Below, one piece after another: positions 23,836-49,678 of a stretch of 64,000 nt of DNA (position 1 is its first letter; the number at the start of each line of letters is the position of its first letter). The notes below the pieces were generated by a model. The model was not told where the DNA came from and searched no databases. It worked only from the letters and a program-made list of their open reading frames with translations. Both the position numbers and the translations under genes were made by a program. This DNA is from Chloroflexota bacterium (GTDB lineage Bacteria > Chloroflexota > Anaerolineae > Anaerolineales > E44-bin32), in the NCBI GenBank assembly GCA_022561385.1, contig JADFRG010000010.1:13135-77134 (forward strand), read 5' to 3'.

Positions 23836-23842
23836 CCCGCAG

Positions 23843-23923: not shown

Positions 23924-23945
23924 GTAGGCATCATCCACTATCCAG

Positions 23946-23973
23946 GCACCGAGCAACGGCTCGGTGCTTTTTT
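23946..23973 (+). terminator. Intrinsic terminator/attenuator hairpin in the aroF 5' leader
   Basis: GCACCGAGC-aacg-GCTCGGTGC forms a perfect 9-bp stem (23946-23967) followed by TTTTTT (23968-23973). It ends 27 nt before ATG 24001, which has the SD GGAGGAGG. There is no upstream + strand gene for it to terminate. Confidence 0.8.
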
Positions 23974-24000
23974 GTTTTCTACTAACCGAAGGAGGAGGAA

Positions 24001-28070: not shown

Positions 28071-29232
28071 ATTTCTGACCGCCGGAGAATCGCACGGGCC
28101 TGAACTGCTCGCGATCGTGGAGGGTATTCCTGCCGGCCTGGCGCTCACGGAAGCCGACCTGCTTCCCGACCTCGCCCGCCGCCAGGTGGGATTCGGGGTC
28201 GGGCCAAGAATGAAGTCCATCGAGCAGGACGAAGCTCAGATCGTATCGGGTGTGTTGGCCGGGCTCACCATCGGAGCTCCTATCGGCCTACGGATCATCA
28301 ATCGCGATCACACGAAGTGGAAGGGCCAGGAGATTCCGCCGATGACGGTCCCGCGTCCCGGCCATGCGGATCAAACGGCCGCGCTAAAATATGGCTACCC
28401 GGATTTACGCTTCAGCCTGGAGCGTGCCTCTGCGCGTGAGACGGCTGCGCGGGTGGCGGTAGGTGCCGTCTGCCGCAAGCTGCTCGCCGAGTTCGGCATA
28501 TCCATCGGGAGTTACGTCACGGAAATAGGCACCGCCTCCGCCGAATTTGGGGAACTGGATTTTAATCAGCGCTTCGAAGCGGCCGAGCGAAGCGAAGTAC
28601 GCTGCCCAACCGAGGCCGGTACGGCGGCCATGCGTGAAGAGATTCGGGCTGCCATGCAGGCTAAAGATACGTTGGGCGGCGTGTTTGAGGTGGTCGCCTT
28701 AAACGCCCCGCCGGGATTGGGCAGCCATGTGCATTGGGATCGGCGGCTTGGGGGGCGCGTGGCGGCGGCCATGATGAGCATCCATGCCATGAAAGGGGTT
28801 GAGATTGGCCCGGGCTTCGAAAACGCTCGAATGCGCGGCACGCAGGTCCACGATGAGTTCGAAACCTCGGACGAGCGAGTCCGCCGCCGGAGCAACCGTG
28901 CCGGCGGTCTCGAAGGAGGAATCACAACCGGCGACCCGCTCATCGTCCGGGTTGCGATGAAACCCATCTCGACCACACTGACCCCACGCGCCTCGGTGGA
29001 TCTGGCCACCGGTCAGGCGGCCGAAACCCGTTACGAGCGCTCAGATTTCTGCTCGGTCCCCCGCGCGGCCGTTGTGGGAGAGGCCATGCTTTGTATTGTG
29101 CTGGCAGAGGCGCTGCTTCGTAAACTCGGCGGCGATTCGGTTTCGGAGATGAAGCCCAGGTTCGACCAGCTGCCGCGGGGTCGCCTGGACGATTTTAAAA
29201 TGGTCAATGAGCCCATCATCTTCTGGGACTAG
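28063..29232 (+). CDS. aroC: Chorismate synthase
   Basis: 389 aa with the MLRFLTAGESHGP N-terminus and the RPGHAD and SARETA motifs. Confidence 0.95.
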   Translation: MLRFLTAGESHGPELLAIVEGIPAGLALTEADLLPDLARRQVGFGVGPRMKSIEQDEAQIVSGVLAGLTIGAPIGLRIINRDHTKWKGQEIPPMTVPRPGHADQTAALKYGYPDLRFSLERASARETAARVAVGAVCRKLLAEFGISIGSYVTEIGTASAEFGELDFNQRFEAAERSEVRCPTEAGTAAMREEIRAAMQAKDTLGGVFEVVALNAPPGLGSHVHWDRRLGGRVAAAMMSIHAMKGVEIGPGFENARMRGTQVHDEFETSDERVRRRSNRAGGLEGGITTGDPLIVRVAMKPISTTLTPRASVDLATGQAAETRYERSDFCSVPRAAVVGEAMLCIVLAEALLRKLGGDSVSEMKPRFDQLPRGRLDDFKMVNEPIIFWD

Positions 29233-31401: not shown

Positions 31402-31431
31402 TTGACAAACCTTCAATTCTTCTGATACTCT
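31402..31431 (+). promoter_or_regulatory. Promoter candidate upstream of lysC (TTGACA, then GATACT/TACTCT about 16-18 nt downstream)
   Basis: TTGACA lies at 31402-31407. The -10-like region cTGaTACTCT lies at 31422-31431. Confidence 0.4.
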
Positions 31432-31463
31432 CATCGAAATATCCAGAAGGTAGCAGACCGATA

Positions 31464-31553
31464 ATGATTTACGGACGCGATCGAGCGACGAGTACCGGCA
31501 CCGGATTGACTATGGGCATGACATTCAGCTCCCGGCAGATGGAGGGCGCTTAG
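31464..31553 (+). CDS. Candidate lysC-asd leader peptide, 29 aa: MIYGRDRATSTGTGLTMGMTFSSRQMEGA
   Basis: This is the 3' part of ORF-track entry 31341-31553, taken from the ATG downstream of the promoter-like hexamers. It has 5 Thr and 4 Met codons (aspartate-family products) and no Lys. SD support is weak (GAAGG 13 nt upstream). Confidence 0.35.
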   Translation: MIYGRDRATSTGTGLTMGMTFSSRQMEGA

Positions 31554-31586
31554 CCTAGTTAGACGGATAGATTTCAGAAAATAGGC

Positions 31587-31620
31587 AGGCCGCTCTCAAC
31601 CCGGGAGCGGCCTATTTTAT
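31587..31620 (+). terminator. Hairpin plus A/U-rich tract just upstream of lysC (attenuator, or the aro-operon terminator)
   Basis: AGGCCGCTC (31587-31595) pairs with GAGCGGCCT (31605-31613), a 9-bp stem with a 9-nt loop, followed by ATTTTATT. It ends about 16 nt before ATG 31636. Confidence 0.6.
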
Positions 31621-31635
31621 TGCTGCGAGCAGCCA

Positions 31636-33057
31636 ATGACCCTTGATGAAACGCGATTGAAAACCCTCACCATGAAATTCGGCGGGACTTCCTTAGGAAC
31701 CGCCGAGGCCATCATGCAATCCGCCGAAATTGCGAAGGCCGCCCGAGATCACACCGCGGACCGGATAGCCGTGGTCGCCTCGGCCATTCATGGGGTCACC
31801 GATGGGCTGCACGAGGCGACCAGTGCCGCCGCCGGAGGAGACGAGCGATATCTGCAGGTCATCGCGGAACTGAGGGATGTCCACCGTCGGTGCGCCGAGG
31901 CGCTGTTGGAGCAGGAGTCCAGAAATGCGGTGGCGGAAATCGACCAGCTCCTGGAGGGCTTCTCGGGGTTCTGCGAGAGCGTGCGGACGTTGGGCGAGGC
32001 CGGGCCGCGCGCGCTGGACCATGCGATGAGCCTGGGCGAGAAGATGAGCGTCATCCTTTTGGCGGCCTCCATGCGGCAGCTCGGAGTTGCGGCGATCGCG
32101 GTAGACGCCTCGGAGGTCATCGTTACCGACGATCGATTCCAGGACGCCGCGCCCGACTTGGAAGCCACGCGGCAAAAGGCAACTGCAACCCTGATACCCG
32201 TTCTCGAACGCGGCGAGACGCCGGTGATCACCGGTTTCATCGGAGCCACACGCGAGGGCGTAACAACGACCCTGGGGCGCGGCGGGTCTGATTTCAGCGC
32301 AGGCTTGATCGCGGCATGCCTGGACAGCGATGAACTGTGGATATGGACCGACGTGGATGGCGTAATGACCGCCGATCCGAAGGTTGTGGACTCGGCCCGG
32401 ACGATTGCGACACTGGGCTACGAGGAGGTTCGGGAACTATCTTATTTCGGTGCCAAGGTGCTGCACCCGAAAACCATACAATCCGTATTCGAGACCGAAA
32501 TTCCGATACGTGTGAAAAATACGTTTGACCCATCCCACCCCGGGACCTTGATCGTTCCCAATCCGGAGGAAAGCAACGGTGCAATCAAGGCCGTTACCGC
32601 GGTGCGAAATGTGAGTCTCATCACGGTCGAGGGCAAAGGCATGATGGGCGTCCCAGGAATCGCGGCTCGAACATTCGAGGCCGTGGCCAGCACCGGAGCC
32701 AGCGTTCTGCTCATCTCGCAGGCCTCGTCGGAGCAAAGCATCACCTTTGCCGTTCCCAGGACAAACGCCTCCACCGCGGTCGAAGCTCTGGAGTCGGAAT
32801 TTGAGCGGGTGCTCAGCCGAGGGAATATCGACCGAATATGGGCTCAAGATGACATCACAATTGTCACTGTTGTCGGGAGTCGCATGCGGGAAACCGCCGG
32901 AGTGGCCGGTCGGGTCTTCACCGCCACAGGACTGCGGGGCATCAATGTGGTCGCCATCGCGCAAGGGTCGTCCGAGTGCAGCATCTCGCTGGTGGTTCGG
33001 GATCGTGATGGCGACGATGCGGTACGCGCCATCCACGAACTGGTTATTGAAGGATGA
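31636..33057 (+). CDS. lysC: Aspartate kinase (monofunctional, two C-terminal ACT domains)
   Basis: 473 aa with the KFGGTSLG motif, the amino-acid kinase fold pattern and two ACT-like repeats (VSLITVEGKGMMGVPGIAAR..., ITIVTVVGSRMRETAGVAGR...). The start could also be ATG 31672. Confidence 0.9.
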   Translation: MTLDETRLKTLTMKFGGTSLGTAEAIMQSAEIAKAARDHTADRIAVVASAIHGVTDGLHEATSAAAGGDERYLQVIAELRDVHRRCAEALLEQESRNAVAEIDQLLEGFSGFCESVRTLGEAGPRALDHAMSLGEKMSVILLAASMRQLGVAAIAVDASEVIVTDDRFQDAAPDLEATRQKATATLIPVLERGETPVITGFIGATREGVTTTLGRGGSDFSAGLIAACLDSDELWIWTDVDGVMTADPKVVDSARTIATLGYEEVRELSYFGAKVLHPKTIQSVFETEIPIRVKNTFDPSHPGTLIVPNPEESNGAIKAVTAVRNVSLITVEGKGMMGVPGIAARTFEAVASTGASVLLISQASSEQSITFAVPRTNASTAVEALESEFERVLSRGNIDRIWAQDDITIVTVVGSRMRETAGVAGRVFTATGLRGINVVAIAQGSSECSISLVVRDRDGDDAVRAIHELVIEG

Positions 33058-34331: not shown

Positions 34332-35153
34332 TCAAGCGTTCCAGCGATGCCTTGGATAGGATCCAAGGATCCGGAAGAAACTAGCGTTGGCTTTGAGTTC
34401 CTCCAGCGCCTGGGATACCTCTTCCTGGTCGGGCGATCCGGCGTGGTCCAGATAGAAGTTGTACTCCCATGGCCTGCCTACCAGCGGCCGCGATTCGATC
34501 TTGGTCAGGTCGATTCCGCGGCTGGCAAAGGAGGCCAGGGCTTCATACAGCGCCCCGGCGTGATTCCCAAGCGTAAACGCGATCGAGGTTTTCGCATCCG
34601 GGCCCGGCTCGACCATTTCGGTACCAAGCACCAGGAAGCGCGTGAAGTTGGCCGGATCATCTTCAATTCCCTCCGCCAGGACGTGCATTCCATACACCTC
34701 CGCCGCCCGCTGCGATGCAATTGCGGCCGCGTCCCGTTGTTTGCCCTCCGCAAGCATACGGGCGCTACCCGCGGTGTCGTAGGTTGAAACGACCTCGACC
34801 TCGGAGAGGTCGGCAAGAAATCGCTCGCACTGAGCCAGCGCCTGGGGATGCGACATCACGCGCCGAATCTCAGTCAATTCCACGCCTGGAAGGGCGAGCA
34901 GACAATGCTCGATGCGATGATGATATTCGCCGATGATGGTCAGATCATGTCGAAGCAGGAGATCGAAGTTTCGGTGGATACTGCCCGCCAGCGAATTCTC
35001 GATCGGAATCAGGCCGAGATCCGCCTCCCCGCGTTCGACGGAGAGAAAAACAGATTCAAAAGTGGTGCGGGGCAATGTTTCGGCACTCTCGCCGTAAATC
35101 GCCAGCGCTGCGGCTTCGCTGTAAGCGCCTGATTCCCCTTGAAATGCTATCAT
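34332..35153 (-). CDS. pheA: Prephenate dehydratase with a C-terminal ACT domain
   Basis: 273 aa. It has the [13 protein letters not shown]-terminus and the TKIESRPL (ESRP) motif. It starts 10 nt after the ilvE stop. Confidence 0.9.
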
Positions 35154-35163
35154 TGGGCTCGGA

Positions 35164-36105
35164 TCAGGCCTTCAAGGGTTCTTCCGCCTTCACGGGGTCC
35201 AGCCACTCCGCGGAGCGTTCCCCTGCGCCTCGTACCACGTCAAAGAATGCCTGCTGTATGGCTTGGGTCGCCGGGCCCCTTCGACCCTCGCCAATAGTGC
35301 GGAAATCAAGCTCCCGAACCGGAGTAACCTCCGCCGCCGTCCCGCACACGAAAACTTCGTCTGCGATGTATATTTGATCACGAGAAATCGGCTCCTCAAC
35401 CACCGTGTACCCCAAATCCGTGGCCAATGTCATCACAGAGTCGCGTGTGATTCCCTCAAGGATTGTGGCGCGTGGGGTCGTGTATATCACCCCCGCCCGC
35501 ACCAGGAACAAGTTCTCCCCGCTGCATTCGGCCACAAATCCTTGAGGATCCAACATGACCGCCTCGTCGAAACCCGAGCGCTTGGCGAGTGTTTTGGCCA
35601 GAACCGAGTTAGCGTAGTTGGCCGTGATCTTGGCCTTGGTCATTGAAACGTTGGGGTGATGGCGAGTGAAAGAGGAAACCGCCATTTTGACCCCCTTCTC
35701 GAGTGCCGCCTCGCCTAGATAAGTCCCCCATTCCCAGGCTGCGATACCTACCGAGGGGCGCTGATCGTCAAGATTTAATCCGAGCGGGCCCTCCGCCATA
35801 TACATGAGTGGCCGCACATAACAGTCGCTGAGATCATTGGCAAGGATGGTCGCGTGAACCGCGCCGCGCAAGGTTGGCAGATCGTACTTAAAATCTAGCA
35901 CTCCTAACACGTGGATCGAATCGAGAAATCGCTTGAGATGATCTTCCAGGCGAAAGACTGCCGGCCCGCTGGGCGTCTCATAACACCGGATACCCTCGAA
36001 GACGCCCAGCCCATAATGAAGGGCGGGTGCCATGAAGGGGACAGTGGCCTCTTCACTTGGCAACATCTCGCCGTCCATCCAGATGTATTTCGCCTTTGCT
36101 CCCAT
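35164..36105 (-). CDS. ilvE: Branched-chain amino acid aminotransferase (class IV)
   Basis: 313 aa with the class IV PLP aminotransferase pattern ([31 protein letters not shown]). Confidence 0.9.
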
Positions 36106-36152
36106 ATGTGAACCCCTCTTTCAGTTGCGGCGGTTTGACATGCGAAATCAAA

Positions 36153-37247
36153 TCAGTGCGGCCCTTCGGTTGTTATTCTCGACTTGAGCCGGTCAACCAC
36201 CGCCTCTCCCATCTCCTCCGTGGTTTGGGAATCATTGGTTGTGAGGTCGGCGGTCCTTGCGCCATCCGCGATGGCCTGCTGAACGGCTTGTTCGACCGCC
36301 ACCGCTTCCGGTTCCAATGCGAGCGAGTGGCGCAGCAGCATGGCAACGCTCAAGATCGTCCCAATTGGATTGGCAATTCCCTGCCCGGCGATGTCGGGCG
36401 CGGATCCATGAATCGGCTCGTATACGCCCAAAGTGCCCTCACCGATCGAGGCGCTGGGCAACATTCCGAGTGACCCGGTCAGAACCGAGGCCTCGTCGCT
36501 TAGGATGTCGCCAAACATGTTCTCGGTTACCAGTACATCGAAATGCCGCGGATCCGCGATCAGCCGCATGGCCGCCGAATCGACCAGTTGATGCTCCAGG
36601 CGCACGTTTGGAAACGAATGGGCTTCTTCCTGCGCCACCTGGCGCCACAATCGAGAAGTCTCGAGCACGTTGGCCTTGTCCACCGATGTCAGATGTGCCC
36701 GCCGCGGCTCGGCCAGCTGAAATGCCAGACGAACCACCCGGCGGATTTCATGCTCATGGTATTCCAACGTATCTACCGCTCTGCGCTTGCCATCGATCGT
36801 CTCTAACAAGCGCGGCTCGCCAAAGTACAAGCCGCCAGTCAGCTCACGTACGATGAGAATGTCCACATCCTTTACGAGCTCCGGCCGGAGCGGCGAGGCG
36901 TCCACTAACTCCGGAATCAGGCGCACGGGTCGTAGATTGGCATAAAGCTGGAGGCCCTGTCGCAGACCGAGCAGCCCCTGCTCAGGCCGAACTTTGGCTT
37001 GCGGGTCGTCCCACTTCGGGCCGCCCACCGCACCCAGCAGCACCGCCGCCGCGGATCGGCAAGCCTCGAGCGTGGGTTCAGGCAGGGGATCACCTGTTTC
37101 ATCGATAGCGACACCCCCAATCGGCCGCTCCTCGAAGGCAAACTGGTGGCCATAAGCAGCCGCTACCGCCTCCAATACTTTGCGTCCTTCACTTACAACT
37201 TCCGGACCGACTCCGTCGCCTGGAAGCAGTACGATTTTAGCCTCCAT
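36153..37247 (-). CDS. leuB: 3-isopropylmalate dehydrogenase
   Basis: Motifs: [34 protein letters not shown]. The start is taken at ATG 37247 (GGAAGGA upstream); the ORF-track start at 37250 is TTG. Confidence 0.95.
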
Positions 37248-37370
37248 CAATTCCTTCCGTTTCCAAATGGGCGGCGAACCGCTCTGGGCTCGGCTGCGGA
37301 CCCTCTTATGTTATTGACCTCAATCGTTTGGAAAATCGCTCGCGGCCGGCAGGCTTGATCCTTAAAGCAA

Positions 37371-38939
37371 TCAGTTCGCCAGGGTCAGGCCGTAGTCGAT
37401 GCTGTCGACCAGTGCCTGCCAGGAGGCCTCGATGATATTCGCTGAGGCGCCCACCGTGCTCCATTCTTGGCTTCCATTTCGGCTATCGATGAGAACGCGA
37501 GTGGTGGCCCCGGTCCCTTTTTGGCCATCCACAATCCGCACCTTGTAATCGACCAATTGAAACGAATTCACAGCCGGATAGATGGGTGTAAGGGCCTTGC
37601 GCAGGGCCGCGTCGAGCGCGTTCACCGGCCCATTGCCCTCGGCCGCGGTGTGAATCACCTCGCCCTCTACCCTTACTTTGACCGTCGCCTCGGCGAATGT
37701 GCCCCGACCGCTCCGATTTTCGACCACCACCGCGTAATCGATCAGTTCGAAAGGGGCCTTGTAGTCCGCGGATTGGCGCTTCAGGAGCATGGCCACCGAG
37801 GCCTCCGCAGCCTCAAACGAAAACCCCTGGGCTTCCAATTCCTTGAGCCGGTCGAGCACTTTCGGCATGTCGACACTTTCGTCCAGCTGGAGGCCCAGCT
37901 CCTCCGCCTTGCTCAGTAGATTTCCCCGGCCAGACAGCTCACTTACAACCACCCGCATCTGGTTGCCAACCTCAGCCGGGTCGATGTGCTGGTATGAGTC
38001 CGCGTGCCGGCGCATGGCGGCCACATGGATGCCGCCTTTGTGGGCGAAGGCGCTGGTTCCCACATACGCCATGTGTTCATCCTGGGGCAGGTTGGCTACA
38101 TCCGATACGAAGCGTGAGACCTCGGCAAGGTCCTTGAGCTTCCCCTGAGGCAGACATCGCAGACCCATCTTGAGCTCCAGATCTGGGATGATCGCGCACA
38201 AATTTGCATTACCGCATCGCTCCCCGTAACCGTTGATGGTGCCTTGAACATGGACCACCCCGGCTTGCACCGCCGCCAGGCTGTTGGCCACGCCGCATTC
38301 CGAGTCGTTGTGTGTATGAATACCCACCGGGAAAGCCAGCTCTTCAACAACTTCACCAACGATCTCCCCGACTTCCCAGGGCATGGAACCGCCGTTAGTG
38401 TCGCAGAGCACAACAATCTCCGCGCCCCCCGCAACGGCAGCTTTGAGGGTCTCGACCGCGTAGATTGGATCGTCTTTGTAGCCATCGAAGAAGTGCTCCG
38501 CGTCGTAGATTACGCGTCGGTCCCGGGACATCAAGAAGGCCACGCTCTCCTCGATCATCAACAGGTTTTGTTCCTGCGTGGTCCTAAGCACTTCGGTCAC
38601 GTGCAGCTTCGAGGATTTACCGACCACGGTGCAGACCGGAGTCCCCGCATCCAGCAAGGCCTTTAGGTTAGGGTCCTCTTCCGGGGCATTGCCGGCCCGC
38701 CGGGTCGAGCCGAAAGCCGCGATCTGCGCGTACTCCCAGTCCATGTCCCTGGCGCGATCAAAAAATTCGGCGTCCTTTGGATTCGAACCCGGCCACCCTC
38801 CTTCGATGAAAGCAACCCCCAGGCGATCCAGCTTGGAGGCGATGCGCAGCTTGTCGTCGCAGGACAGCGAGATCCCTTCCCGTTGTGTACCGTCTCGCAG
38901 CGTCGTGTCATAAATTTGAATCGTCTCAGGACCCGTCAT
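37371..38939 (-). CDS. cimA: Citramalate synthase (LeuA-related, CimA clade)
   Basis: IQIYDTTLRDGTQREGISLS...IEGGWPGSNPKDAEFF is the pattern typical of the CimA-type branch rather than LeuA, and a C-terminal LeuA-dimer regulatory domain is present. The start is chosen at ATG 38939, overlapping the leuD 3' end. Confidence 0.85.
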   Translation of the reverse strand: MTGPETIQIYDTTLRDGTQREGISLSCDDKLRIASKLDRLGVAFIEGGWPGSNPKDAEFFDRARDMDWEYAQIAAFGSTRRAGNAPEEDPNLKALLDAGTPVCTVVGKSSKLHVTEVLRTTQEQNLLMIEESVAFLMSRDRRVIYDAEHFFDGYKDDPIYAVETLKAAVAGGAEIVVLCDTNGGSMPWEVGEIVGEVVEELAFPVGIHTHNDSECGVANSLAAVQAGVVHVQGTINGYGERCGNANLCAIIPDLELKMGLRCLPQGKLKDLAEVSRFVSDVANLPQDEHMAYVGTSAFAHKGGIHVAAMRRHADSYQHIDPAEVGNQMRVVVSELSGRGNLLSKAEELGLQLDESVDMPKVLDRLKELEAQGFSFEAAEASVAMLLKRQSADYKAPFELIDYAVVVENRSGRGTFAEATVKVRVEGEVIHTAAEGNGPVNALDAALRKALTPIYPAVNSFQLVDYKVRIVDGQKGTGATTRVLIDSRNGSQEWSTVGASANIIEASWQALVDSIDYGLTLAN

Positions 38940-39519
38940 GGCTGGCCTCGTATGCGGCGATTTTCCCTTCCATAGAGAGCAAGTACCCGAGTTGGTCAAC
39001 CCCCTCCAGGAGCGAGAGCTTGGCGAAGGGATCCATCGGAAAATTTACGGCATGTCCATTGCCGAATGAAACCGTCTGCGAGACGAGGTCGATGGTCACC
39101 TCTGCTTGAGGATCCTGGGCCACAATGCCGAAGAGCTCTTTATGTGCCTCGGCCTCGACAATCACCGGAAGCAACCCATTCTTGAGCGAATTGTTGCGAA
39201 AGATGTCGGCAAAAGAAGTTGAAATCACGGCCCGCACTCCCCAATCCATGAGCGCCCACGGCGCATGTTCGCGGGAGGAACCGCATCCAAAATTGCTGCC
39301 TGCAAGTAGGATTTGAGCGCCCTGGACCTCCGGCCGATTGAGCACGAACTCGGGATTGGGCGAGCCATCCGCCAAATTCCGCCAGTCTTCGAAGAGATGC
39401 TCTCCGAGTCCTAATTTGTCGATCACCGTGAGGAAGCGCGCCGGGATGATCTGATCCGTGTCGACGTCTTTTTCCGCCAGCGGAACCACGTGCGAGGTGA
39501 GTTTTCTAAATTTCTCCAT
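38926..39519 (-). CDS. leuD: 3-isopropylmalate dehydratase small subunit
   Basis: 197 aa with the aconitase swivel-domain pattern (GSNFGCGSSREHAPWAL). Confidence 0.95.
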   Translation of the reverse strand: MEKFRKLTSHVVPLAEKDVDTDQIIPARFLTVIDKLGLGEHLFEDWRNLADGSPNPEFVLNRPEVQGAQILLAGSNFGCGSSREHAPWALMDWGVRAVISTSFADIFRNNSLKNGLLPVIVEAEAHKELFGIVAQDPQAEVTIDLVSQTVSFGNGHAVNFPMDPFAKLSLLEGVDQLGYLLSMEGKIAAYEASHDGS

Positions 39520-39525
39520 GACCCT

Positions 39526-40944
39526 TTATAACAATGTCCTGGGGTCGGTGATTGCACCCCTTACGGCCGAGGCGGCTGCCGTAAGCGGTGAAGCCAGAAA
39601 AGTCCGCCCACCTTTACCCTGACGCCCCTCGTAGTTCCGATTGCTCGTGCTCACCCCGTACTGCCCCGCTTCAAGCTCATCGCCATTCATGGCCAGGCAC
39701 ATAGAGCAGCCCGCCTCACGCCATTCAGCTCCCGCTTTGAGGAAGATCTCGTGCAGGCCTTCGGCCTCCGCCTGGCGCTTCACGGATTGTGATCCCGGTA
39801 CCACAAGCATCCGGAGCCCCTCCGCCACCTTACGGCCGTCGAGAATACCAGCGGCCAATCGCAGATCCGTGATGCGAGAATTGGTACAGGACCCAATGAA
39901 CACAACGTCAATTTCATGCCCCAGAAGCGATTGCCCGGGTTCCAGATCCATATACTTCAGGGCTTTTTCGACCGATTGCCGTTGATCTACATCTGAGAAT
40001 TGATCCAGGGTGGGAATGCGGTCGCCGAGTGGCATCCCCATTGAGGGATTCGTCCCATAAGTGATCATCGGTTCCAGTTCGCCGGCATCGAGAGTGACTC
40101 TCCGATCGAAACTGGCGCCCTCATCGGTGGCGACCTGGCGCCAGTGATCTATCGCCGCATCCCAGGCTTTCCCACTGGGCGCGTACTCCCGCCCGGCCAG
40201 GTACTCGAAGGTGGTATCGTCGGGCGCAATCATTCCTGCCCGCGCTCCGGCCTCGATGGTCATATTGCAAATTGTCATCCGTTGTTCCATGTCGAGCGCG
40301 CGAATTGCGGGACCCGTGTACTCAATGACGTGACCGTTCCCGCCGTCCACCCCAATCTTGGCCATCACCGCCAGAATGATGTCTTTGGCGGTCACCCCCG
40401 GATCCATCTTTCCCTCTACCCGCACCTCAAAGGAGTTCTGCTTTGTCTGCAGCAAACACTGGGTGGCCAACACGTGTTCGACTTCGCTCGTACCGATCCC
40501 GAACGCCAGCGCGCCGAAGGCGCCGTGAGTCGAAGTGTGGCTGTCTCCGCAGACGATCAGCATGCCGGGCTGAGTCAGTCCCAGTTCCGCACCAATCACG
40601 TGAACGATTCCCCGTCGGTCTGATTGCAGATCGTATAACGTTACGCCGAATTCCTTGCAGTTCTTGGCGAGCTGCCTGACCTGTGCGGCGGCCATCTTGT
40701 TCACCAGATTGAGGTCGAGGGCCAGAGTTGGAGTCGAGTGGTCCATCGTGGCAAAGGTCTTGTCAGGCCGACGCACCTGCCGGCCGGCTTCTCTCAGTCC
40801 GGCGAATGCCTGTGGAGATGTGACCTCATGGATCAGGTGCAGGTCGATGTACAACACGGCCGGACTCTCCGGCTCTTGTGCAACGACGTGGTCGCTCCAG
40901 ATCTTCGAGAGCATAGTGCGGGGTGAGGGATTGGAATCGGTCAT
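39526..40944 (-). CDS. leuC: 3-isopropylmalate dehydratase large subunit
   Basis: 472 aa. Motifs: [38 protein letters not shown] (Fe-S ligands). Confidence 0.95.
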
Positions 40945-41001
40945 GTTTCTTCAGGGTTGCCTCAAGTGCAAGTCACGCGCCCCGGCATGGGTCGTGAGCG
41001 G

Positions 41002-42663
41002 CTATTTGGGAGCCTCGACCGGGACCGCTGCTTCGGCTTTCCCGGCGCCGCCCACTTGCGCCGCAGATTCTGCTTCGCTGCGATACCCTTCCTCAGCGAG
41101 CAGCTTGTTCAGCGCTGAGAGGTAGGCCTTGACGCTGGCGACGATGATGTCCGTGTCGGCTCCGTAACCTCCGTAGGTTCTGGGTCGGGAGGTTTCACGC
41201 TGGGCGTTCAACGCATCCGGCGCGTCTTCTCCCTGGATACGAACGGCCACCTCCCCTTGCGCGTCGATGCCTTCCGTGACCGCATTCACGGAAAACTCCA
41301 GCAGTACATTTGACGCTCCGACGATTTCATCAACCGCCTTGTAGGCCGCGTCCACGGGTCCGGTGCCGATGGCGGCCTGGACATAACGCGTGTCCCCGGG
41401 TCCAGATAGCCGCACCGTGGCGGTGGGCATACCCATCGTGCCGCACACTACCTGCAGGCCCTCCAGGGCGAACACCTCCGGCGGCTGGTAGAGTTCATCC
41501 GCAACAAGGGCTTCGAGATCGGCATCGGTGATAACTTTCTTCTTGTCCGCCAACGACTTGAAGCGCCGGAAGGCGCGCGCCAGGTCGTCGTCTCCAAGCT
41601 CGTATCCGAGCTCCTTAAGCCGCACCTTAAAGGCGTGCCGACCGGAGTGTTTGCCGAGTACCAGCGTGCTCTGTGTAAGCCCCACCGTCTCCGGGCGCAT
41701 GATTTCGTAGGTAAGTTCGTTTTTCAGCATGCCGTCCTGGTGTATTCCAGCTTCGTGGGCGAAGGCGTTGGCCCCAACAATCGCCTTGTTGGGCGGGACC
41801 ATGATTCCCGTGTAATTGCTCACCAGCTTGCTGACTCGACTTATTTGGGTCGTATCGATATCAGTAGAAAGGGAGAAAACAGGCCGCCGCGTGTGTAGGG
41901 CCATTACCACTTCTTCCAACGAGGTGTTGCCAGCTCGTTCTCCGATTCCGTTAATCGTTACTTCTGCCTGGCGGGCGCCGGCCTGAATGCCTGCCAGAGT
42001 GTTGGCGGTTGCTAATCCCAGATCGTCGTGACAATGAACAGAAAGGATTACGTCTTCAACGCCGGGTACATGCTCGACGATGCCTGCGATAATGCCCCCA
42101 AACTCGTTTGGGGTCGTGTAACCGACCGTGTCCGGAATATTAAGCGTGGTCGCGCCTGCTTTGATGGCCTCCTCCAGCACCACGTACAGAAAATCGGGAT
42201 CGCTTCGGCCGGCGTCTTCCGGGCTAAACTCGACGTCATCACAAAACGAACGCGCGTACTGGACCATCTCTATCACCCGCTCGATGACTTCTTCCGGATC
42301 CATGCGCAGCTTGTGTTTCATATGGATCTCTGAGGTCGCCAGGAAAGTATGAATTCGGGGGCGAGCTGCAGGTTCCACCGCTTTCCAGGCTGCGTCGATG
42401 TCTGCCGAATGAGCACGAGCCAGGCCACAAATGATGGGAGCCTGATCCTGCCCCTCAGAGGTGATATTGCCCACCTCCTCCGCGATGCGCTGGACGGCAT
42501 TGAGGTCGTCTGGCGAGGCGGCCGGAAATCCGGCTTCGATAACGTTCACCCGCAGGCGTGAAAGCGCACGGGCCACCTCGAGCTTCTCACTGGAGGTCAT
42601 CATGGCCCCGGGGGATTGCTCACCATCCCGCAGCGTCGTGTCAAAGATTCGGACCTGATCCAT
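41002..42663 (-). CDS. leuA: 2-isopropylmalate synthase
   Basis: Motifs: [30 protein letters not shown], plus a C-terminal regulatory domain. The start is taken at ATG 42663; the ORF-track start at 42690 is TTG. Confidence 0.95.
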
Positions 42664-42686
42664 AACGCGGCTACCTTCCCCTTTAT

Positions 42687-43700
42687 TCAATCTCCGGACT
42701 TCACCGTCACCGGATCGAGAAAGGGCATCATCGCGCGCAGTTTCGCCCCCACTTCTTCGATCGGGTGCTGCTGCTCCTTCTTGCGTTGTTCCTCAAACCA
42801 TGGCCGGCCGCGCGCATTTTCTTCGATCCAATTGTTAGCATAGGTGCCGTCCTGGATCTCGCGAAGCATTTGTTTCATCTCGCCCACCGTCTCTTCAGTG
42901 ATCAGGCGCGGGCCGCCGGTATAGTCTCCGTGCTCGGCAGTCTCGCTGATCGAGTAACGCATGTAGTTCAGGCCTCCCCGGTACATGAGATCCACGATCA
43001 ATTTGAGCTCGTGCAGGCACTCAAAATACGCTATTTCGGGCTGGTAACCGGCCTTGACCAGCACTTCGAATCCAGCTTTGACCAGCGCGCTCACTCCGCC
43101 GCACAACACGGCCTGCTCGCCAAATAGATCGGTCTCGGTCTCTTCGGCAAACGTGGTCTCAATCACTCCCGCCCGCGTGGCTCCCAGCCCTTTGGCATAG
43201 GCGAGAGCGAGCGATTTAGCGCCCCCGCTCGGGTCCTGATGGACGGCCAGGAGCGCCGGGGTGCCCTCGCCGTCTTGAAAAGTCTCGCGCACCCGATGCC
43301 CGGGCGCCTTGGGTGCCACCATACTCACGTCCACTTCTGCCGGCGGCTCGATCGTGCCAAAGCGAATGTTGAAGCCGTGGCTGAACATCAGGGTTTTTGA
43401 GGGCTTCAGGTTGGGGGCAATATCTTCGGAATAGATCGCCGGTTGAGAGGTGTCGGGGGCGAGCATCATAATCACATCTGCCCACTCGGCGACGGCGGGC
43501 ACGGTGTTTACGGTCAGTCCCTGCGCCTCGGCCGCATCACGACTCTTGCTCTCCGGCCGCAGCCCGACCTGCACCTCAGCTCCGCTGTCGCGCAGGTTCA
43601 GCGCATGTGCATGTCCCTGCGACCCATAACCAATAATGGCTACTTTCTTGGCCTGGATCAGGCTCAGATCGGCGTCTTTGTCGTAGTAAATGGTTGCCAT
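42687..43700 (-). CDS. ilvC: Ketol-acid reductoisomerase (class I)
   Basis: The start is at ATG 43700 ([15 protein letters not shown]) with GGAGGA upstream. It carries the [19 protein letters not shown] motif. Confidence 0.95.
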
Positions 43701-43752
43701 GGATACAGGGTTTCCTCCACTAGTAAAGGACGGATGCTCCGCCAGCGGAGCA

Positions 43753-44322
43753 TCAGCTGGCGGAGCCGTTAGGCACTCGGGCCGCCACAAATTCAGGATT
43801 CGTGCTCGGAACATCCGAACCACGGGTCATCGCCACACGTCCGGTTCGCACCATTTCGAGGATGCCGAACGGGCGCAGCACCTCGCAGAGACTTTCGATC
43901 TTCTCCTCGGTGCCGGTGATCTCCACGATGAGGGAATCCGGGGTCACATCGACCGCCCGAGCCCGGAACACGTCGCACATCTGCAGCACCTGAGCCCGTG
44001 TCGACGAATCCGCCTTGACTTTGATCAATGCCAGATCGCGCATGACGGTGGGGAGATGGGTGACGTTTTCAACACGGAGCACATTCACCAGCTTGTACAG
44101 GTTGGCCTCCACGCGGCGCGCGACGACGTCGTCGGTTTTCACGGCGATGGTCATGCGAGATATACCGGGGCGATCGGTGGGGCCAACCGCGAGCGACTCG
44201 ATATTAAAGGCACGCCGGCGGAAAAGCGAAGCCACCCGATTCAAGACCCCTGGCTTGTCTTCGACGTATACCACGAAGGTGTGGATGCCTTCACGCAAGG
44301 GATTCCTGCCGTTATCGGTCAT
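43753..44322 (-). CDS. ilvN: Acetolactate synthase small (regulatory) subunit
   Basis: 189 aa with an ACT domain ([34 protein letters not shown]). The ATGA overlaps the ilvB stop, and there is a strong GGAGG SD. Confidence 0.9.
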
Positions 44323-46046
44323 CTCCCGCCTCCTACCAGTTCGTCTTCCGCGGTTTCTACAATGGAGCTTGGGCGCCGGATCATGGCGTCCAAATCCGCC
44401 CCGGCCGGCACCATGGGGTAGACGCTGTCTTCCTGCACGACCCTAAAATCGATAATTACCGTTCCCGGTTCTTGCTGGGCCCGGCGCACTGCGTCCTCCA
44501 CCTGGCCCCGCTCCTCAACCCGGAGTCCCAACAGACCGTGGGCATCGGCCAGTTTCACGAAGTCGGGACTGAGCATGGGTGTGGCCGCGTAGCGACGCCC
44601 GTAGAAAAATTCCTGCCACTGACGAACCATACCCAGAAATCCGTTGTTGATGATCGCAACGTTGATCTTGATTCCCTCCTGGGCACAAGTTGACAGCTCG
44701 GCCTGGGTCATTTGGAAACCGCCGTCGCCTACGATGGCCCAGACTTCGTCCTCGGGCTTGGCGAATCGCACGCCGATCGCGGCGGGTAGGCCAAAACCCA
44801 TCGTTCCCAATCCCCCGGACGTGATCAGCGTGAACGGCTTTTCGTGTTTGAAGTACTGGGCCTCCCACATCTGATGCTGCCCGACGTCGGTGACGATAAT
44901 CGGCTTGCCTTCCGTTATCCGCCATATGTCGTTGATGACATGCGCCGCGTAAAGAGCTCCGGTATCTGGCAGACTTTGAATGTCACGCACGGCCGAGTCA
45001 CCCCTGAGCTCATCGATATGCTCCAACCAGGCCGTATGTTCCTTTTGGGTCAGTTGAGGCAGCAGGATCTCCAGGGTCTCGCGCAGATCGCCAACGATCC
45101 CAACATCGACCCGCACGTTTTTGTCGATTTCCGTGGGATCAATGTCGATGTGAATCTTTTTGGCATTCACCGCGTATGTCTTCAGGTTTCCTGTTACCCG
45201 GTCGTCGAAACGCATCCCGAAAGCCAATAGAAGATCCGCTTCTTGAATGGCGTGATTGACCCAGCTTTCACCATGCATCCCCATCATGCCCTGATTGAGC
45301 GGATGGCTGGCCGGTATACCTCCGAGCCCAAGCAGGGTGGTCGTCACCGGGATCTGGGTCTTCTCGGCGAAATCGATCAGGATTTGCATCGCTCCCGACA
45401 TCATGACTCCGTGCCCGGCCAGGATGATCGGTCGCTCAGCTTCTTCGATCAACTCCAGCGCGTGTTCGTACTCTTCGGGCAGCGCGCGTAAGTCGGGCCG
45501 ATATCCGGGCAGCCGCTCGGGGGCATCGGCTGGAACGTACTCGATCGAAGCAATCTGGGCGTCCTTGCTGATGTCTACCAGCACCGGACCCGGCCGACCC
45601 GATCGGGCCACATAAAAAGCTTCTCGCATTGTGGGCCCGATCTCCTCCACGTCTGTGACGAGATAGTTGTGCTTCGTTATCGGTAACGTGACACCGGTCA
45701 CGTCAGTCTCCTGAAAGGCATCGCTGCCGATGGCGGTGGAGGGGACCTGCCCGGTAATACAGACGATCGGAGACGAATCCATCATTGCGGTGGCGATTCC
45801 CGTAACCAGATTGGTTGCCCCGGGCCCGGAGGTTGCCATGGCCACTCCGACCCGGCCGGAGGCGCGGGCATATCCGTCTGCCATATGGGCCGCACCTTGC
45901 TCATGCCGCACTAATACGTGCCGCACAGGGTAATCAAGCATCGCATCGTAGGTCGGCAGGATCGCGCCTCCCGGGTAGCCGAAGACAACTTCGACCCCCT
46001 CTTGCGTTAGCACCTCCCAGACAATTTGTGCTCCCTTTCGTTCCAT
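44319..46046 (-). CDS. ilvB: Acetolactate synthase large (catalytic) subunit
   Basis: ThDP enzyme pattern (GYPGGAILP, GLGTMGFGLPAAIG...GDGGF). The start is taken at ATG 46046 with GAGGAGAAG upstream; the ORF-track start is 46082. Confidence 0.95.
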   Translation of the reverse strand: MERKGAQIVWEVLTQEGVEVVFGYPGGAILPTYDAMLDYPVRHVLVRHEQGAAHMADGYARASGRVGVAMATSGPGATNLVTGIATAMMDSSPIVCITGQVPSTAIGSDAFQETDVTGVTLPITKHNYLVTDVEEIGPTMREAFYVARSGRPGPVLVDISKDAQIASIEYVPADAPERLPGYRPDLRALPEEYEHALELIEEAERPIILAGHGVMMSGAMQILIDFAEKTQIPVTTTLLGLGGIPASHPLNQGMMGMHGESWVNHAIQEADLLLAFGMRFDDRVTGNLKTYAVNAKKIHIDIDPTEIDKNVRVDVGIVGDLRETLEILLPQLTQKEHTAWLEHIDELRGDSAVRDIQSLPDTGALYAAHVINDIWRITEGKPIIVTDVGQHQMWEAQYFKHEKPFTLITSGGLGTMGFGLPAAIGVRFAKPEDEVWAIVGDGGFQMTQAELSTCAQEGIKINVAIINNGFLGMVRQWQEFFYGRRYAATPMLSPDFVKLADAHGLLGLRVEERGQVEDAVRRAQQEPGTVIIDFRVVQEDSVYPMVPAGADLDAMIRRPSSIVETAEDELVGGGR

Positions 46047-46111
46047 GATCTTCTCCTCTGGCGTCCCTTCGATCCGCGACAAATCCTTCGCCCGTCAGTA
46101 TTGTTGGATGG

Positions 46112-47785
46112 CTAAACGCAAACCGCCCCTCGGGAGGCAGACGATACCAACTTGGCATACTTGGCCATCACGCCTCGCTTATATCGAGGCTCGGGCGGCT
46201 GCCAGTCTTCCAAGCGCGCCTGGATATCTACCTGCGACATTTCGACATCGATGCGGCGGCCCTCCACGTCAATCACAATCTGGTCCTCGTCTCGCAGCGC
46301 CGCGATCGGACCTCCGCGAGCGGCTTCCGGCGCCACGTGTCCCGCCATGAGGCCGTGTGTTGCCCCCGAGAATCGGCCGTCGGTCAGCAGTGACACGGAG
46401 TCTCCCAATCCTGCGCCTACGATGGCCGCCGTGACTCCCAGCATCTCGCGCATCCCCGGGCCGCCGACGGGGCCCTCGTATCGAATAACCACCACGTCGC
46501 CTTTCTTGATGTCTCCGGACTGGACCGCTTCAAAGGCCGACTCTTCAGAGTCAAATACCCGGGCCGGACCCCTGTGGTAGGTCATGTTGTGGCCCGCGAT
46601 CTTGACAATGCAGCCCTCCGGCGCCAGGTTCCCTCTCAGCACCACTAATCCCCCGGTTGGGCTGATCGGGTCGCTTAACGGCCGGATAACTTCCTGACCG
46701 GCGGTTTCGGTCGCCTCTCTGGCCTCTTCCCCAATCGTTCTTCCGGTCACCGTGATCGCATCGGAGTGAAGAATCCCCGCCTCGACCAGTCGATTCGCAA
46801 CGAGCTGCCAACCGCCGGCCTCGTATACGTCCGTCGCCACGTACCGACCGCTAGGCTTCAGATCGGCGAGCAGCGGCGTTTTCGAGCTGATACGGTCGAA
46901 ATCCTCCATCTCGAGCTCTACCTCGACCTCGTTGGCAATGGCAATGAGATGTAATACTGCGTTGGTGGATCCTCCGGTCGCCGCTACCGAGGCGATCGCG
47001 TTTTCCAGCGCATCGCGAGTGATGATCTGGCGTGGGCGGAGATCGCGCTCCAATAGGTCCATCACCATTTCTCCGGCGGCAAACGCGGCCTGGTCCTTCT
47101 CTTCTCGGGCGGCAGGCACACTGGCACTCCCCATGATGGAGATTCCGAGGAACTCGCTGACGGTGGCCATCGTGTTGGCGGTGAATTGACCTCCGCAGGC
47201 CCCCACGCCAGGGCAAGCGACGTCTTCCAGCGCTTTGAGCTCTGCATCCGATATGGTGCCGGCGGCATGCGCACCGACCGCTTCGAAGACGTCCTGTATC
47301 GTGACGTCTCTTCCTTCGTATCGCCCGGGCTCAATGGAGCCTCCATACAGCATCAAACCGGGAAGGTCGAGACGGGCCAACGCCATGATGGTCCCCGGGA
47401 TAGTCTTGTCGCAGCCGGAGATGGCGATCAGGGCGTCGAACATGTTGCCGCGGGCGACAAGCTCGATAGAGTCGGCGATGACTTCGCGGCTGACGAGGGA
47501 AGTTTTCATCCCTTCGGCACCCATGGTGATCCCATCCGAAATCGACACGGTGTTAAATTCCATGGGAGTTCCACCCGCGGCCCGAATGCCTTCCTTGACC
47601 TTCGCCGCCAGCCGGCGCAAATGGAAGTTACAAGGCCCGATCTCGATCCAGGTATTGGCTACGCCTATGAGGGGTCGGCTCAGGTCTTCGTCGCTAAATC
47701 CGGCCGCTTTCAACATGGCTCGAGCCGGTGCGCGGCTGGGTCCTTCTGTGATGGCCCGGCTCCGCTGTCGAAGGTCTCTCGCCAT
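46112..47785 (-). CDS. ilvD: Dihydroxy-acid dehydratase
   Basis: 557 aa. Motifs: [28 protein letters not shown]. Confidence 0.95.
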
Positions 47786-47821
47786 CAGGAAACGCGCTCG
47801 AAAATCGACGGGTTGTGCATC

Positions 47822-48028
47822 TTAGCCGTTGAAGCTCTCCATTAGCGCCTCACCCGATCCACGCTCCTCCCCACCGGTCGCGTCTTCAACCTCCTGCTTG
47901 GTCGAATCCTCCGCCTCGGTTGGGTGGGCGGGTGAGGTCGGGGGTAAAGGGGTGCGAGCTTGTTCTTCATCGCGCCTTGGGGTCGACGATCCAGCCCCGT
48001 CGCCTGGATGACCTTGTACTTTTTCCAT
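47822..48028 (-). CDS. Hypothetical small acidic Pro/Glu-rich protein (68 aa) between the ilv attenuator and ilvD
   Basis: ATG 48028 is preceded by the strong SD AGGAGGAG. The product MEKVQGHPGDGAGSSTPRRDEEQARTPLPP...EALMESFNG is low-complexity. I recognise no homology, and its coding status is unproven. Confidence 0.4.
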   Translation of the reverse strand: MEKVQGHPGDGAGSSTPRRDEEQARTPLPPTSPAHPTEAEDSTKQEVEDATGGEERGSGEALMESFNG

Positions 48029-48057
48029 CGTTTCTCTCCTCCTGCGGCAGCCAAGTA

Positions 48058-48092
48058 GCCAAAAAATAAAAGCACCTCCCAGTTGGGAGGTG
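48058..48092 (-). terminator. Intrinsic terminator/attenuator hairpin in the ilv-leu 5' leader
   Basis: The minus-strand RNA is CACCTCCC-aact-GGGAGGTG (8-bp stem, 48092-48073) followed by CTTTTATTTTTT. It lies 32 nt after the leader ORF stop and immediately upstream of the AGGAGGAG SD. Confidence 0.8.
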
Positions 48093-48124
48093 TGGTTGTT
48101 TTTCAAGCTTCTGTGATTAGTCCG

Positions 48125-48223
48125 CTACACCGCCTCAACCAGTTTTCGCTTGCCGCCCTCAATAAGGACGAGAAGCTCAGAAATAATAACCAGCGAAATA
48201 ATCAGGAAACTAACGATTGACAT
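48125..48223 (-). CDS. Candidate ilv-leu leader peptide, 32 aa: MSIVSFLIISLVIISELLVLIEGGKRKLVEAV
   Basis: My own translation of the minus strand from 48223 to 48125 (ATG ... TAG). There are 6 Ile, 6 Leu and 5 Val codons among 32. It lies upstream of the terminator hairpin and the 11-gene ilv/leu operon. Confidence 0.65.
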   Translation of the reverse strand: MSIVSFLIISLVIISELLVLIEGGKRKLVEAV

Positions 48224-48258
48224 CGATTTCAGCCCATCGGGACTGCATATTGGCGACA

Positions 48259-48286
48259 ACGTTATCACGGATCTTGGATAAGTCAA
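48259..48286 (-). promoter_or_regulatory. Promoter candidate for the ilv-leu leader (TTGACT-N16-TAACGT on the minus strand)
   Basis: The -35 lies at 48286-48281 and the -10 at 48264-48259, about 35 nt upstream of the leader ATG. The -10 hexamer is weak. Confidence 0.3.
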
Positions 48287-48538
48287 GCGAACGCACTCGG
48301 CTCCGCATTCGTCTTAGACCTGCCCCGCCTACAGGCGTTCCCGAGCCTGGACTCTAGGCGAACCTCCGACCCGACTTATAGCCTCAGCCCACCCAATAGG
48401 TCGGGCGCGCGGTTATCTCGAGGTCACTCATCTCGAGCAGCTGCATAGCGGCCGCCTCTACGATTCATTCACAAATTCAAGCGAACCGAACTGCCCTACT
48501 GCCCGGCGGATTACCCAGTCTAATGAGTCCCTAACAGC

Positions 48539-49678
48539 ATGGATAAGGATCTTTCGATAGAATGCGGCCACCCCATGACAGCGAAATATCGCTTTCTCGC
48601 GCTTCCAGCCGTCTTCCTGATAGCCGCATGTTCGAATCCGCAGGCAAGGATCGACGCCCCCGTATCGTCGCCTACCTCCCGGGCCCTTGCAATCCAAACG
48701 CCCCTGCCCCCGACTGAGACCTCGGCTCCAACTGCGATCCCTACCGCCCGTCCGACTTCAACCCCTCCCCCGCACCCGCTGTCGATCGATTACCTGAGAG
48801 GACGTGAGTTCCCGGCCAGTGAGATTCAAATAGAAGAGACCCTGGCCAATGGGGCCAACTACTACCGGTATATAGCTTCCTATCGCTCAGATGGGCTCAA
48901 GATCTTCGCCCTGCTCACGGTGCCCTTTGGGGAGCCGCCGGCTACCGGATGGCCGGTGGTGGTGTTCAACCACGGCTACATTTCGCCCAATCAATACCGC
49001 ACGACCGAGCGTTATGTGGCCTATGTCGATGGCTTCGCTCGCAGCGGATACATCGTTTTTCGCTCCGATTATCGGGGACACGATAAGTCCGAAGGTGTGG
49101 CGCGCAGTGCCTACGGCGCCCCAGACTACACCATCGACGTGCTCAACGCCGTTGCCGCATTAAGGGAATACGAGGGCGCCGATCCCAACCGGATTGGGAT
49201 GTGGGGCCACTCCATGGGCGGCTTCATCACCCTGCGTGCGATGGTCACCGATGAAACGATTCGGGCCGGCGTAATTTGGGCCGGGGTCGTGGCCTCGTAT
49301 CCAGACCTGTTTTTACGTTGGCGCCGCGGCGGGGCGACGCCCGGGCCTACCCCCACTCCGAGGTCCAGCAGCCTGCGCGGCGCACTCACGGAGATCTACG
49401 GCACACCGGAGGAGAATCCGAGGTTCTGGGATCCGCTATCGGCGAATTCCTTTCTGGATGACATCTCGGGTCCGGTTCAGCTGCACCACGGGACCGCCGA
49501 TTCCACCGTTCCGCCTGAATTTTCCCAGATCCTATTTGAGCAAATCGAGGCCGAGGGCGGCCTGGTGGAACTCTACGAATATCCGGGCGACAACCACAAC
49601 CTTTCGAACTACTTCACGCTCGCTATGAGGCGTTCGATCGAATTTTTCGATCGGTATGTGAAAAACGCGGAGGATTAG
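48539..49678 (+). CDS. Alpha/beta hydrolase, prolyl oligopeptidase (S9)/dienelactone hydrolase-like, probable lipoprotein
   Basis: It has the nucleophile elbow GMWGHSMGG and a late His (LHHGTAD). The N-terminal FLALPAVFLIAAC lipobox suggests the real start is ATG 48575. Confidence 0.8.
   Translation: MDKDLSIECGHPMTAKYRFLALPAVFLIAACSNPQARIDAPVSSPTSRALAIQTPLPPTETSAPTAIPTARPTSTPPPHPLSIDYLRGREFPASEIQIEETLANGANYYRYIASYRSDGLKIFALLTVPFGEPPATGWPVVVFNHGYISPNQYRTTERYVAYVDGFARSGYIVFRSDYRGHDKSEGVARSAYGAPDYTIDVLNAVAALREYEGADPNRIGMWGHSMGGFITLRAMVTDETIRAGVIWAGVVASYPDLFLRWRRGGATPGPTPTPRSSSLRGALTEIYGTPEENPRFWDPLSANSFLDDISGPVQLHHGTADSTVPPEFSQILFEQIEAEGGLVELYEYPGDNHNLSNYFTLAMRRSIEFFDRYVKNAED

Follow-up and report, generated by a model that had tools for sequence, protein, structure and literature searches.

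A probable Ile/Leu/Val leader-peptide attenuator upstream of the ilv-leu-cimA-pheA operon in a Chloroflexota genome

The region upstream of ilvD was analysed in a 64,000-nt stretch of DNA, here called the window, from a Chloroflexota bacterium (assembly GCA_022561385.1, contig JADFRG010000010.1, positions 13,135-77,134); all coordinates are window positions. On the minus strand, an 11-gene operon encoding the Ile, Leu and Val (ILV) pathways together is preceded by an ILV-rich open reading frame (ORF) and an intrinsic terminator, and this leader very probably acts as a ribosome-mediated (leader-peptide) transcription attenuator that would set ilv-leu-cimA-pheA expression by Ile, Leu and Val tRNA charging. 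This reading is drawn from composition statistics, from conservation of the architecture in Chloroflexota, from complementarity between the leader 3' end and the terminator 5' arm, and from folding with a ribosome at successive positions. The same evidence backs the multivalent Ile/Leu/Val attenuator that had been proposed from the letters of this stretch, without database searches (the sequence-only reading).

The leader ORF (Table 1) has 17 ILV residues among 32 (six Ile, six Leu and five Val), concentrated in codons 3-21; the location, peptide and count given in the sequence-only reading were exact. Its ILV fraction is 0.53, compared with 0.17 +/- 0.07 for 633 other window ORFs (six-frame ORFs of 20-60 amino acids), of which one reaches about 0.45 and none reaches 0.50. 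Five of the six Ile codons are ATT, which the long ORFs of the window use for 25% of Ile, and three of the five Val codons are GTT (19% in the long ORFs). The ILV composition of the leader is not due to chance, and the 5' leader carries a short ORF in which codons for the amino acids made by the downstream operon are over-represented.

Before the first structural gene, the leader ORF is followed by an intrinsic terminator. Its hairpin (CACCTCCC-aact-GGGAGGTG, 48092-48073, dG (folding free energy) -14.6 kcal/mol) starts 32 nt after the leader TAG, as had been read before, and is followed by the tail CTTTTATTTTTT (48072-48061, with the T-tract at 48071-48061), so that the tail ends at 48061 and the earlier end point of 48058 lies 3 nt too far. 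From the T-tract to the start of ORF2, the next cistron, is 32 nt, and the end of the terminator lies 22-50 nt from ilvD in relatives. Such short spacing leaves no room for a separate operon promoter, and on spacing alone there would be none between the terminator and the next start codon. The gene 5' of the leader region, encoding an alpha/beta hydrolase (48539-49678, plus strand), is divergent, so the leader hairpin cannot serve to terminate a gene upstream of it.

Regions upstream of ilvD were compared in 17 Chloroflexota genome loci and 63 loci from other phyla. With a strict filter (a mini-ORF of at least 45% ILV within 1 kb upstream of ilvD), 11 of the 17 Chloroflexota loci were retained compared with 2 of the 63 others. 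Under a looser filter, the mini-ORF had to be at least 36% ILV, to lie no more than 900 nt upstream of ilvD and to be followed by a hairpin and T-run that start no more than 50 nt from its stop. The layout of ILV mini-ORF and terminator was then found in 15 of 17 Chloroflexota loci; the reverse complement gave 2/17 Chloroflexota and 1/63 others, and the downstream region 0/80 (0/17 Chloroflexota). Submitter labels for the Chloroflexota loci were Anaerolineales, Ardenticatenaceae, Promineifilaceae, Thermoflexales and one Chloroflexia. Metagenome contigs added members, including the only close relatives gained in this way, L081 and L082, and roughly 25 members of the element were collected. The distance from the leader stop to the start of a GC-rich hairpin with T-run is 21-46 nt in every related locus. 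By sequence, the peptides form three groups, A (including the window) with ...LIVLIEGGKR..V.AV, B with ...LLGVVVKEP..VG... and C with ...GLFLILIEE.N.HGQPRM, which diverge widely, yet each retains a stretch of ILV residues with charged or polar residues after it. Composition and layout are shared but sequence is not; a regulatory leader would be expected to show this pattern, a functional peptide would not. Within the leader ORF, the 3' half is conserved at the DNA level, third codon positions included, and is complementary to the terminator arm.

The predicted antiterminator is formed by GGUUG-a-GG-c-GGUG (48140-48128), abutting the leader stop, and CACC-u-CC-CAACU (48092-48081), with 11 bp and a duplex energy of -13.9 kcal/mol, and is mutually exclusive with the terminator. 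The pairing of GGTTGAGG with CCTCccAACT, as proposed earlier, exists and is in the right place; the better register extends it from 8 to 11 bp. In 14 of 14 loci tested, the terminator 5' arm (plus loop) has its most stable partner within the last ~40 nt of the leader ORF. The complementary pairs differ by group, being GGUUG.GG.GGUG/CACCUCCCAAC in A, GUUGGGC/GCCCAAC in B and GG(G/A)C(A/G)GC/GCUGUCC in C; leader and terminator from the same locus pair at -17.2 kcal/mol on average compared with -13.3 kcal/mol for pairs mixed across groups, and the leader by terminator energy matrix is block-shaped, with A/B set against C. Among five group A sequences, 98% of the antiterminator cells are paired compared with 38-58% for slid partner controls, and in group C 93% are paired compared with 36-46%. 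Two compensatory pairs were found in group C, both using terminator-loop bases, which the terminator itself leaves unconstrained.

A further helix, between segments 1 and 2b (Table 1), encloses the antiterminator strand and is the minimum-free-energy state in the window, and the RNAalifold consensus of five group A relatives includes it. In group A, the DNA of the intra-ORF hairpin block hardly varies, and an equivalent hairpin, often with CCUUAUUGAGG, is present in all other groups; it is a candidate pause or timing hairpin.

For the ribosome-position model, a transcript ending at the terminator loop was folded at equilibrium while 28 nt around the modelled A site were masked. In the window, the predicted probability of the antiterminator (11 pairs) was 0.19 without a ribosome. 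It was 0.6-0.98 when the A site was placed on any of codons 2-21, dropped to 0.45 at codon 22 and to 0.03-0.04 at codons 23 and 24, and stayed at 0 from codon 25 as far as the stop. In this model, a ribosome on the ILV codons favours the antiterminator, and a ribosome that is at the stop or absent favours the terminator. A contrast score, which sets 5'-arm pairing in the stall against the value for a ribosome at the stop or for no ribosome, whichever is higher, was 0.46 for the real leader and -0.07 +/- 0.15 for 150 dinucleotide shuffles of it, none of which reached the real value. The model is indicative only, and backs the attenuator reading without proving it.

A putative sigma-70-type promoter, with an extended -10 (TG-n-TAACGT, 48267-48259), lies upstream of the leader at 48286-48259, with a predicted transcription start at about 48252. 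Its blocks GCTTGAC and CCGTGATAA are identical across five close relatives. In group B, a TATAAT box lies 9-11 nt 5' of the leader ATG, a distance which suggests that the group B leader mRNA is leaderless. In L004, L005, L060 and L168, a TAGACC-17-TATAAT promoter ends 9-11 nt before the leader ATG, and the peptide would be made from a leaderless or nearly leaderless mRNA.

In the proposed mechanism, transcription would start from the promoter at 48286-48259 and the 32-codon leader would be translated while RNA polymerase proceeds. When amino acids are ample, the ribosome would reach the UAG and cover GGUUGAGGCGGUG (48140-48128), the terminator hairpin 48092-48073 would form, and transcription would stop in the T-tract 48071-48061. 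When any of the three charged tRNAs is scarce, the ribosome would stall in codons 3-21, so that segment 1 (48211-48191) could not pair with segment 2b (48127-48106); the free segment 2a would then pair with the terminator 5' arm and loop (48092-48081), the terminator would be blocked, and polymerase would read on into ORF2, ORF3, ilvD and the rest of the operon. If the leader is not translated, the 1:2b helix would enclose segment 2a, making termination the default. Translation of the leader, coupling of transcription to translation, ribosome stalling on amino-acid limitation and a functional terminator are all inferred.

Table 1. Features of the ilv-leu leader region and operon, in window positions.
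Feature	Position	Strand	Description	Basis
Putative sigma-70-type promoter	48259..48286	-	-35 TTGACT 48286-48281, 16-nt spacer, TG 48267-48266, -10 TAACGT 48264-48259	Conservation
Leader ORF (ilv-leu leader peptide)	48125..48223	-	ATG 48223, 32 codons + TAG; MSIVSFLIISLVIISELLVLIEGGKRKLVEAV	
Segment 1	48191..48211	-	AGUUUCCUGAUUAUUUCGCUG, codons 5-11; pairs with 48127-48106 in the predicted anti-antiterminator (protector) helix	
Intra-ORF hairpin	48148..48176	-	GCUUCUCGUCCUUAUUGAGGGCGGCAAGC; 5' arm and loop are the last ILV codons (L-L-V-L-I)	
Segment 2a	48128..48140	-	GGUUGAGGCGGUG, codons 28-32, abuts stop; antiterminator 5' strand	
Segment 2b	48106..48127	-	UAGCGGACUAAUCACAGAAGCU, stop codon + 19 nt; segment 1 partner	
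Intrinsic terminator (attenuator)	48061..48092	-	Stem-loop 48092-48073 + tail CUUUUAUUUUUU 48072-48061	
Terminator parts			Segment 3, 5' arm plus loop 48092-48081; segment 4, 3' arm	
Shine-Dalgarno sequence + ORF2	47822..48043	-	Shine-Dalgarno sequence AGGAGGAG 48043-48036; ORF2 48028-47822, 68 amino acids; first cistron after the attenuator	
ORF3	47785..47820	-	11 codons; starts 1 nt after ORF2 stop; UGA overlaps ilvD AUG (UGAUG)	
Regulated operon	34332..47785	-	ilvD, ilvB, ilvN, ilvC, leuA, leuC, leuD, cimA, leuB, ilvE, pheA	NCBIfam/Pfam

Several results count against attenuation at this locus. No canonical Shine-Dalgarno (SD) sequence precedes the leader ATG in the window, so that translation of the leader is assumed. 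A sigma-70 consensus scan called no leader promoter, because the -10 matches the consensus at 3/6 positions only, and the promoter proposed above is a weak consensus match. Covariation gave weak support to the antiterminator: no compensatory changes were found in it among the five closest relatives in group A, which are too similar for within-group tests to be informative, and in group C the signal was not convincingly above shuffles (52/500) in an alignment that was anchored by hand. The full-length fold is not unusually stable (z = -1.25). For L081 and several group B and C loci, no clear switch emerged from the 5'-arm pairing probability of the terminator in the equilibrium model, and the same model was noisy on the validated Escherichia coli ilvL attenuator; given this poor discrimination elsewhere, it was relied on for the window only, alongside the shuffle control. 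Of the two Chloroflexota loci in which the element was not found, L027 is without it and the sequence of L017 ends 305 nt upstream of ilvD, too short to judge.

The mini-ORF and the terminator might instead make up an independent gene, coding for a small hydrophobic membrane peptide or toxin, with the operon transcribed separately or by unregulated read-through. The peptide does look like a single transmembrane helix followed by charged residues, and gene callers have annotated it as a 32-amino-acid protein. Its sequence is poorly conserved, however, whereas the ILV composition, the position upstream of ilvD and the terminator are conserved; the DNA-level conservation of the ORF 3' half and its complementarity to the terminator arm also speak against such a gene, as does the lack of space for a separate operon promoter. 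A protein-database search with the 53-amino-acid TTG-extended ORF returned as sole homologue the identical 32-amino-acid peptide, always in the leader-ORF2-ilvD context, so that conservation of the peptide outside an ilv context, which the sequence-only reading had named as a sign of a membrane peptide or toxin, was not found in this search. We regard an independent peptide gene as very improbable.

It is also quite unlikely that the hairpin and T-tract form a constitutive partial terminator or an mRNA-stabilising element and that the ORF acts without amino-acid sensing, for example by boosting or coupling downstream translation. The absence of an SD before the leader would fit this, the ORF2-ORF3-ilvD chain points to a role for translational relays here, and reinitiation roles have been proposed for leader genes (PMC4833913). 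What such an element leaves unexplained is the specific ILV enrichment ahead of an ILV-biosynthesis operon, the stop-abutting segment complementary to the terminator 5' arm in every lineage, and the position-dependent switch. A leader RNA acting as a riboswitch, T-box or protein-dependent attenuator, with the ORF incidental, could account for the mutually exclusive structures of the region. T-boxes are used by ilv-leu operons in some other phyla (Bacillus subtilis). No Rfam family was matched at threshold in the window or 12 related loci, though, the sole weak match being to a leader-peptide family, and the reading frame and ILV composition are kept even where the sequence is not; this explanation is extremely improbable. 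The leader-peptide attenuator is preferred over all of these.

Two short ORFs lie between the attenuator and ilvD (Table 1). The sequence-only reading had a strong SD followed directly by the operon; the SD is real, and it serves ORF2, after which come ORF3 and ilvD, which starts at 47785 and has no SD of its own. The ORF2 product is small and acidic, with a conserved C-terminus (...EALMESFNG*), and a 'Chloroflexi bacterium' metagenome-assembled genome (MAG) encodes an identical hypothetical protein. Its family comprises 46 clusters of hypothetical proteins of 40-83 amino acids, had no Pfam match, and has variable N-termini with the last ~14 residues kept up to the stop (E.D.W(V/I).Q.L(F/M)(D/E)(C/S/H)YN(G)*). 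ORF2 was found in the window and in L001, L002, L003, L004, L005, L017, L028, L081, L082, L093, L151, L168 and L169. All the loci examined, among them those of two distant members that were looked up independently, have it directly upstream of ilvD. By reading of the sequences, an ORF3-equivalent mini-ORF is present in L001, L002 and L081. ORF3 is probably a translational-coupling relay into ilvD. The C-terminal conservation of ORF2, its place directly before ilvD and its link through ORF3 to an ilvD without an SD would fit a small protein, or a nascent peptide of the arrest type, that regulates either the translation of ilvD or the pathway; that ORF2 forms such a second, previously undescribed regulatory layer, in series with the attenuator, is a tentative and rather unlikely suggestion.

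The operon was described in the sequence-only reading as an 11-gene ilv-leu-cimA-pheA unit, and all 11 genes were verified by NCBIfam/Pfam, from ilvD (47785-46112, minus strand) as the first to pheA (35153-34332, minus strand) as the last. No strong intrinsic terminator was predicted inside the operon on the same strand. By its ilvD, the window belongs to the class Anaerolineae of the Chloroflexota, and the closest genomes are Anaerolineae MAGs, at 90% and 88% identity. The pheA gene, encoding a prephenate dehydratase with an ACT domain (34332-35153, minus strand), closes this operon and is absent from the aro operon 10 kb away; with pheA inside the ilv-leu operon, its control would be by the Ile/Leu/Val leader and not by an aromatic leader.

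Other leader candidates were seen in the window. At 23806-24001 (plus strand) lies a second leader-peptide attenuator candidate. Its ORF (23844-23924) codes for MIRTSWRSFGYYYFGGLSAQPLLRLV, in which W, F, YYY and F cluster, and is followed by a hairpin (23945-23968) and T-run before the aro operon (24001-30826, plus strand; DAHP synthase, prephenate dehydrogenase, aroA, aroE, aroC and an aroK-aroB fusion). About 7 nt separate the end of a TTGACC-17-TATGAT promoter from the ATG of this ORF, which suggests that the mRNA is near-leaderless. The presence of this leader and terminator in the same window was counted as a parallel for the attenuator reading of the ilv leader. At 31402-31636 (plus strand), a promoter-like TTGACA and a short Thr- and Met-rich ORF (31465-31554, MIYGRDRATSTGTGLTMGMTFSSRQMEGA) are followed by a hairpin (31587-31613) with ATTTTATT, just upstream of the genes for aspartokinase (31636-33057) and asd, and this may be a third attenuator.

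Variants of the ilv element were seen among the compared loci. L093 carries a tandem pair of ILV-rich leader ORFs ~685-288 nt upstream of ilvD, each with its own hairpin and T-run, followed by ORF2 and ilvD. In L049, a MAG labelled Candidatus Sulfomarinibacteraceae, a group C-type leader (...IIGLFLILLGIEEIVAHGQPGT) with the terminator GGGGCTGTC...GACAGCCCC was present, which could come from a mis-binned contig or from horizontal transfer. In L001, the closest relative, the strand opposite to the ilv leader carries a SAM riboswitch (2219-2325 on the minus strand of the locus, 87.9 bits) ~250 nt upstream of that leader; no equivalent match was found in the window. A separate ILV-rich leader family (e.g. 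...LILLVLIIITGVAVTPGASG*) with the conserved terminator GAGGCCATCATCC...GATGATGGCCTT lies upstream of ilvD in Acidobacteriota (labels Vicinamibacterales, Terriglobales and similar; L038, L041, L048, L050, L054, L057, L058, L061, L063, L066, L071, L074, L076, L077, L078 and L128), and had no Rfam match in L038 and L128, the two members scanned.

These results would place classic leader-peptide attenuation in several Chloroflexota lineages, with a separate family in Acidobacteriota. In annotation, the element can be recognised by an ILV-rich mini-ORF with a terminator 21-46 nt past its stop; otherwise, it appears as a 'hypothetical protein' or is missed. A single signal could co-regulate the Ile (citramalate route), Leu and Val pathways together with pheA as one 11-gene unit. 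Since an attenuator works only with the ribosome close behind RNA polymerase, its conservation would be indirect evidence of coupled transcription and translation, in bacteria that are largely uncultured.

The element was compared with known systems using Rfam and the literature. At the gathering threshold, nothing relevant was found in the window and 12 related loci, the one match being the SAM riboswitch on the opposite strand of L001. At E <= 10, the leader region gave only Phe_leader (RF01859), at 27.9 bits compared with a gathering threshold of 55, so that the window element is not a member, although RF01859 and related Rfam leader-peptide families belong to the same architecture class. 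The T-box covariance model gave no match even at E <= 10 in 47700-48700, and no ilvB-related family was among the listed Rfam matches (E up to 10) for the window region. The curated RNA library holds no model for the Chloroflexota or the Acidobacteriota leader family, and the papers searched describe neither. A literature search on leader peptides or attenuation in Chloroflexi, Chloroflexota or Anaerolineae, with the 2010 survey by Lopatovskaya et al. outside its reach, found no relevant paper. According to a 2010 survey, which added Firmicutes, such systems had until then been known from Proteobacteria and Actinobacteria only (PMC2965389).

ORFs rich in branched-chain amino acids have been described ahead of ilv genes in Actinobacteria generally (PMC1262725), and attenuation has been proposed or shown for those of Corynebacterium ilvB-II, the ilvB-OMG motif and the Leptospira ilvB motif (PMC10272879). 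These cases indicate that attenuation recurs in many lineages; they precede ilvB, whereas the window element precedes ilvD, and they are different sequence families. In Staphylococcus aureus, a leucine-rich attenuator peptide is reported to control a combined ilv-leu operon (PMC5794164). That leader is Leu-specific and works alongside CodY, whereas the window leader has about equal I, L and V; no protein regulator was identified for the window ilv-leu system.

A striking parallel in layout is the E. coli ilvL leader of ilvXGMEDA. The sequence-only reading had noted a resemblance to enterobacterial leaders and had singled out one mixed ILV leader; the parallel with ilvL stands, and a mixed leader is not unusual, since ilvL has 32 amino acids with I5/L4/V6 and the window leader 32 with I6/L6/V5. 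The terminator follows the leader stop by 22 nt in E. coli and 32 nt in the window, and a small ORF lies between the attenuator and the first enzyme gene in both (ilvX before ilvG in E. coli, ORF2/ORF3 in the window). The two peptides share the local string ISLV(V/I)IS (ISLVVIS vs ISLVIIS), which was considered as a sign of homology and rejected, since the global peptide alignment is weak (score 14) and the string is explained by composition; no RNA sequence homology was detected between the two leaders. Unlike in E. coli, the window operon joins ilv, leu, cimA and pheA in one unit, belongs to another phylum and has an antiterminator strand that abuts the leader stop. The mechanism proposed here is a textbook one, and the sequence family and the phylum are new.

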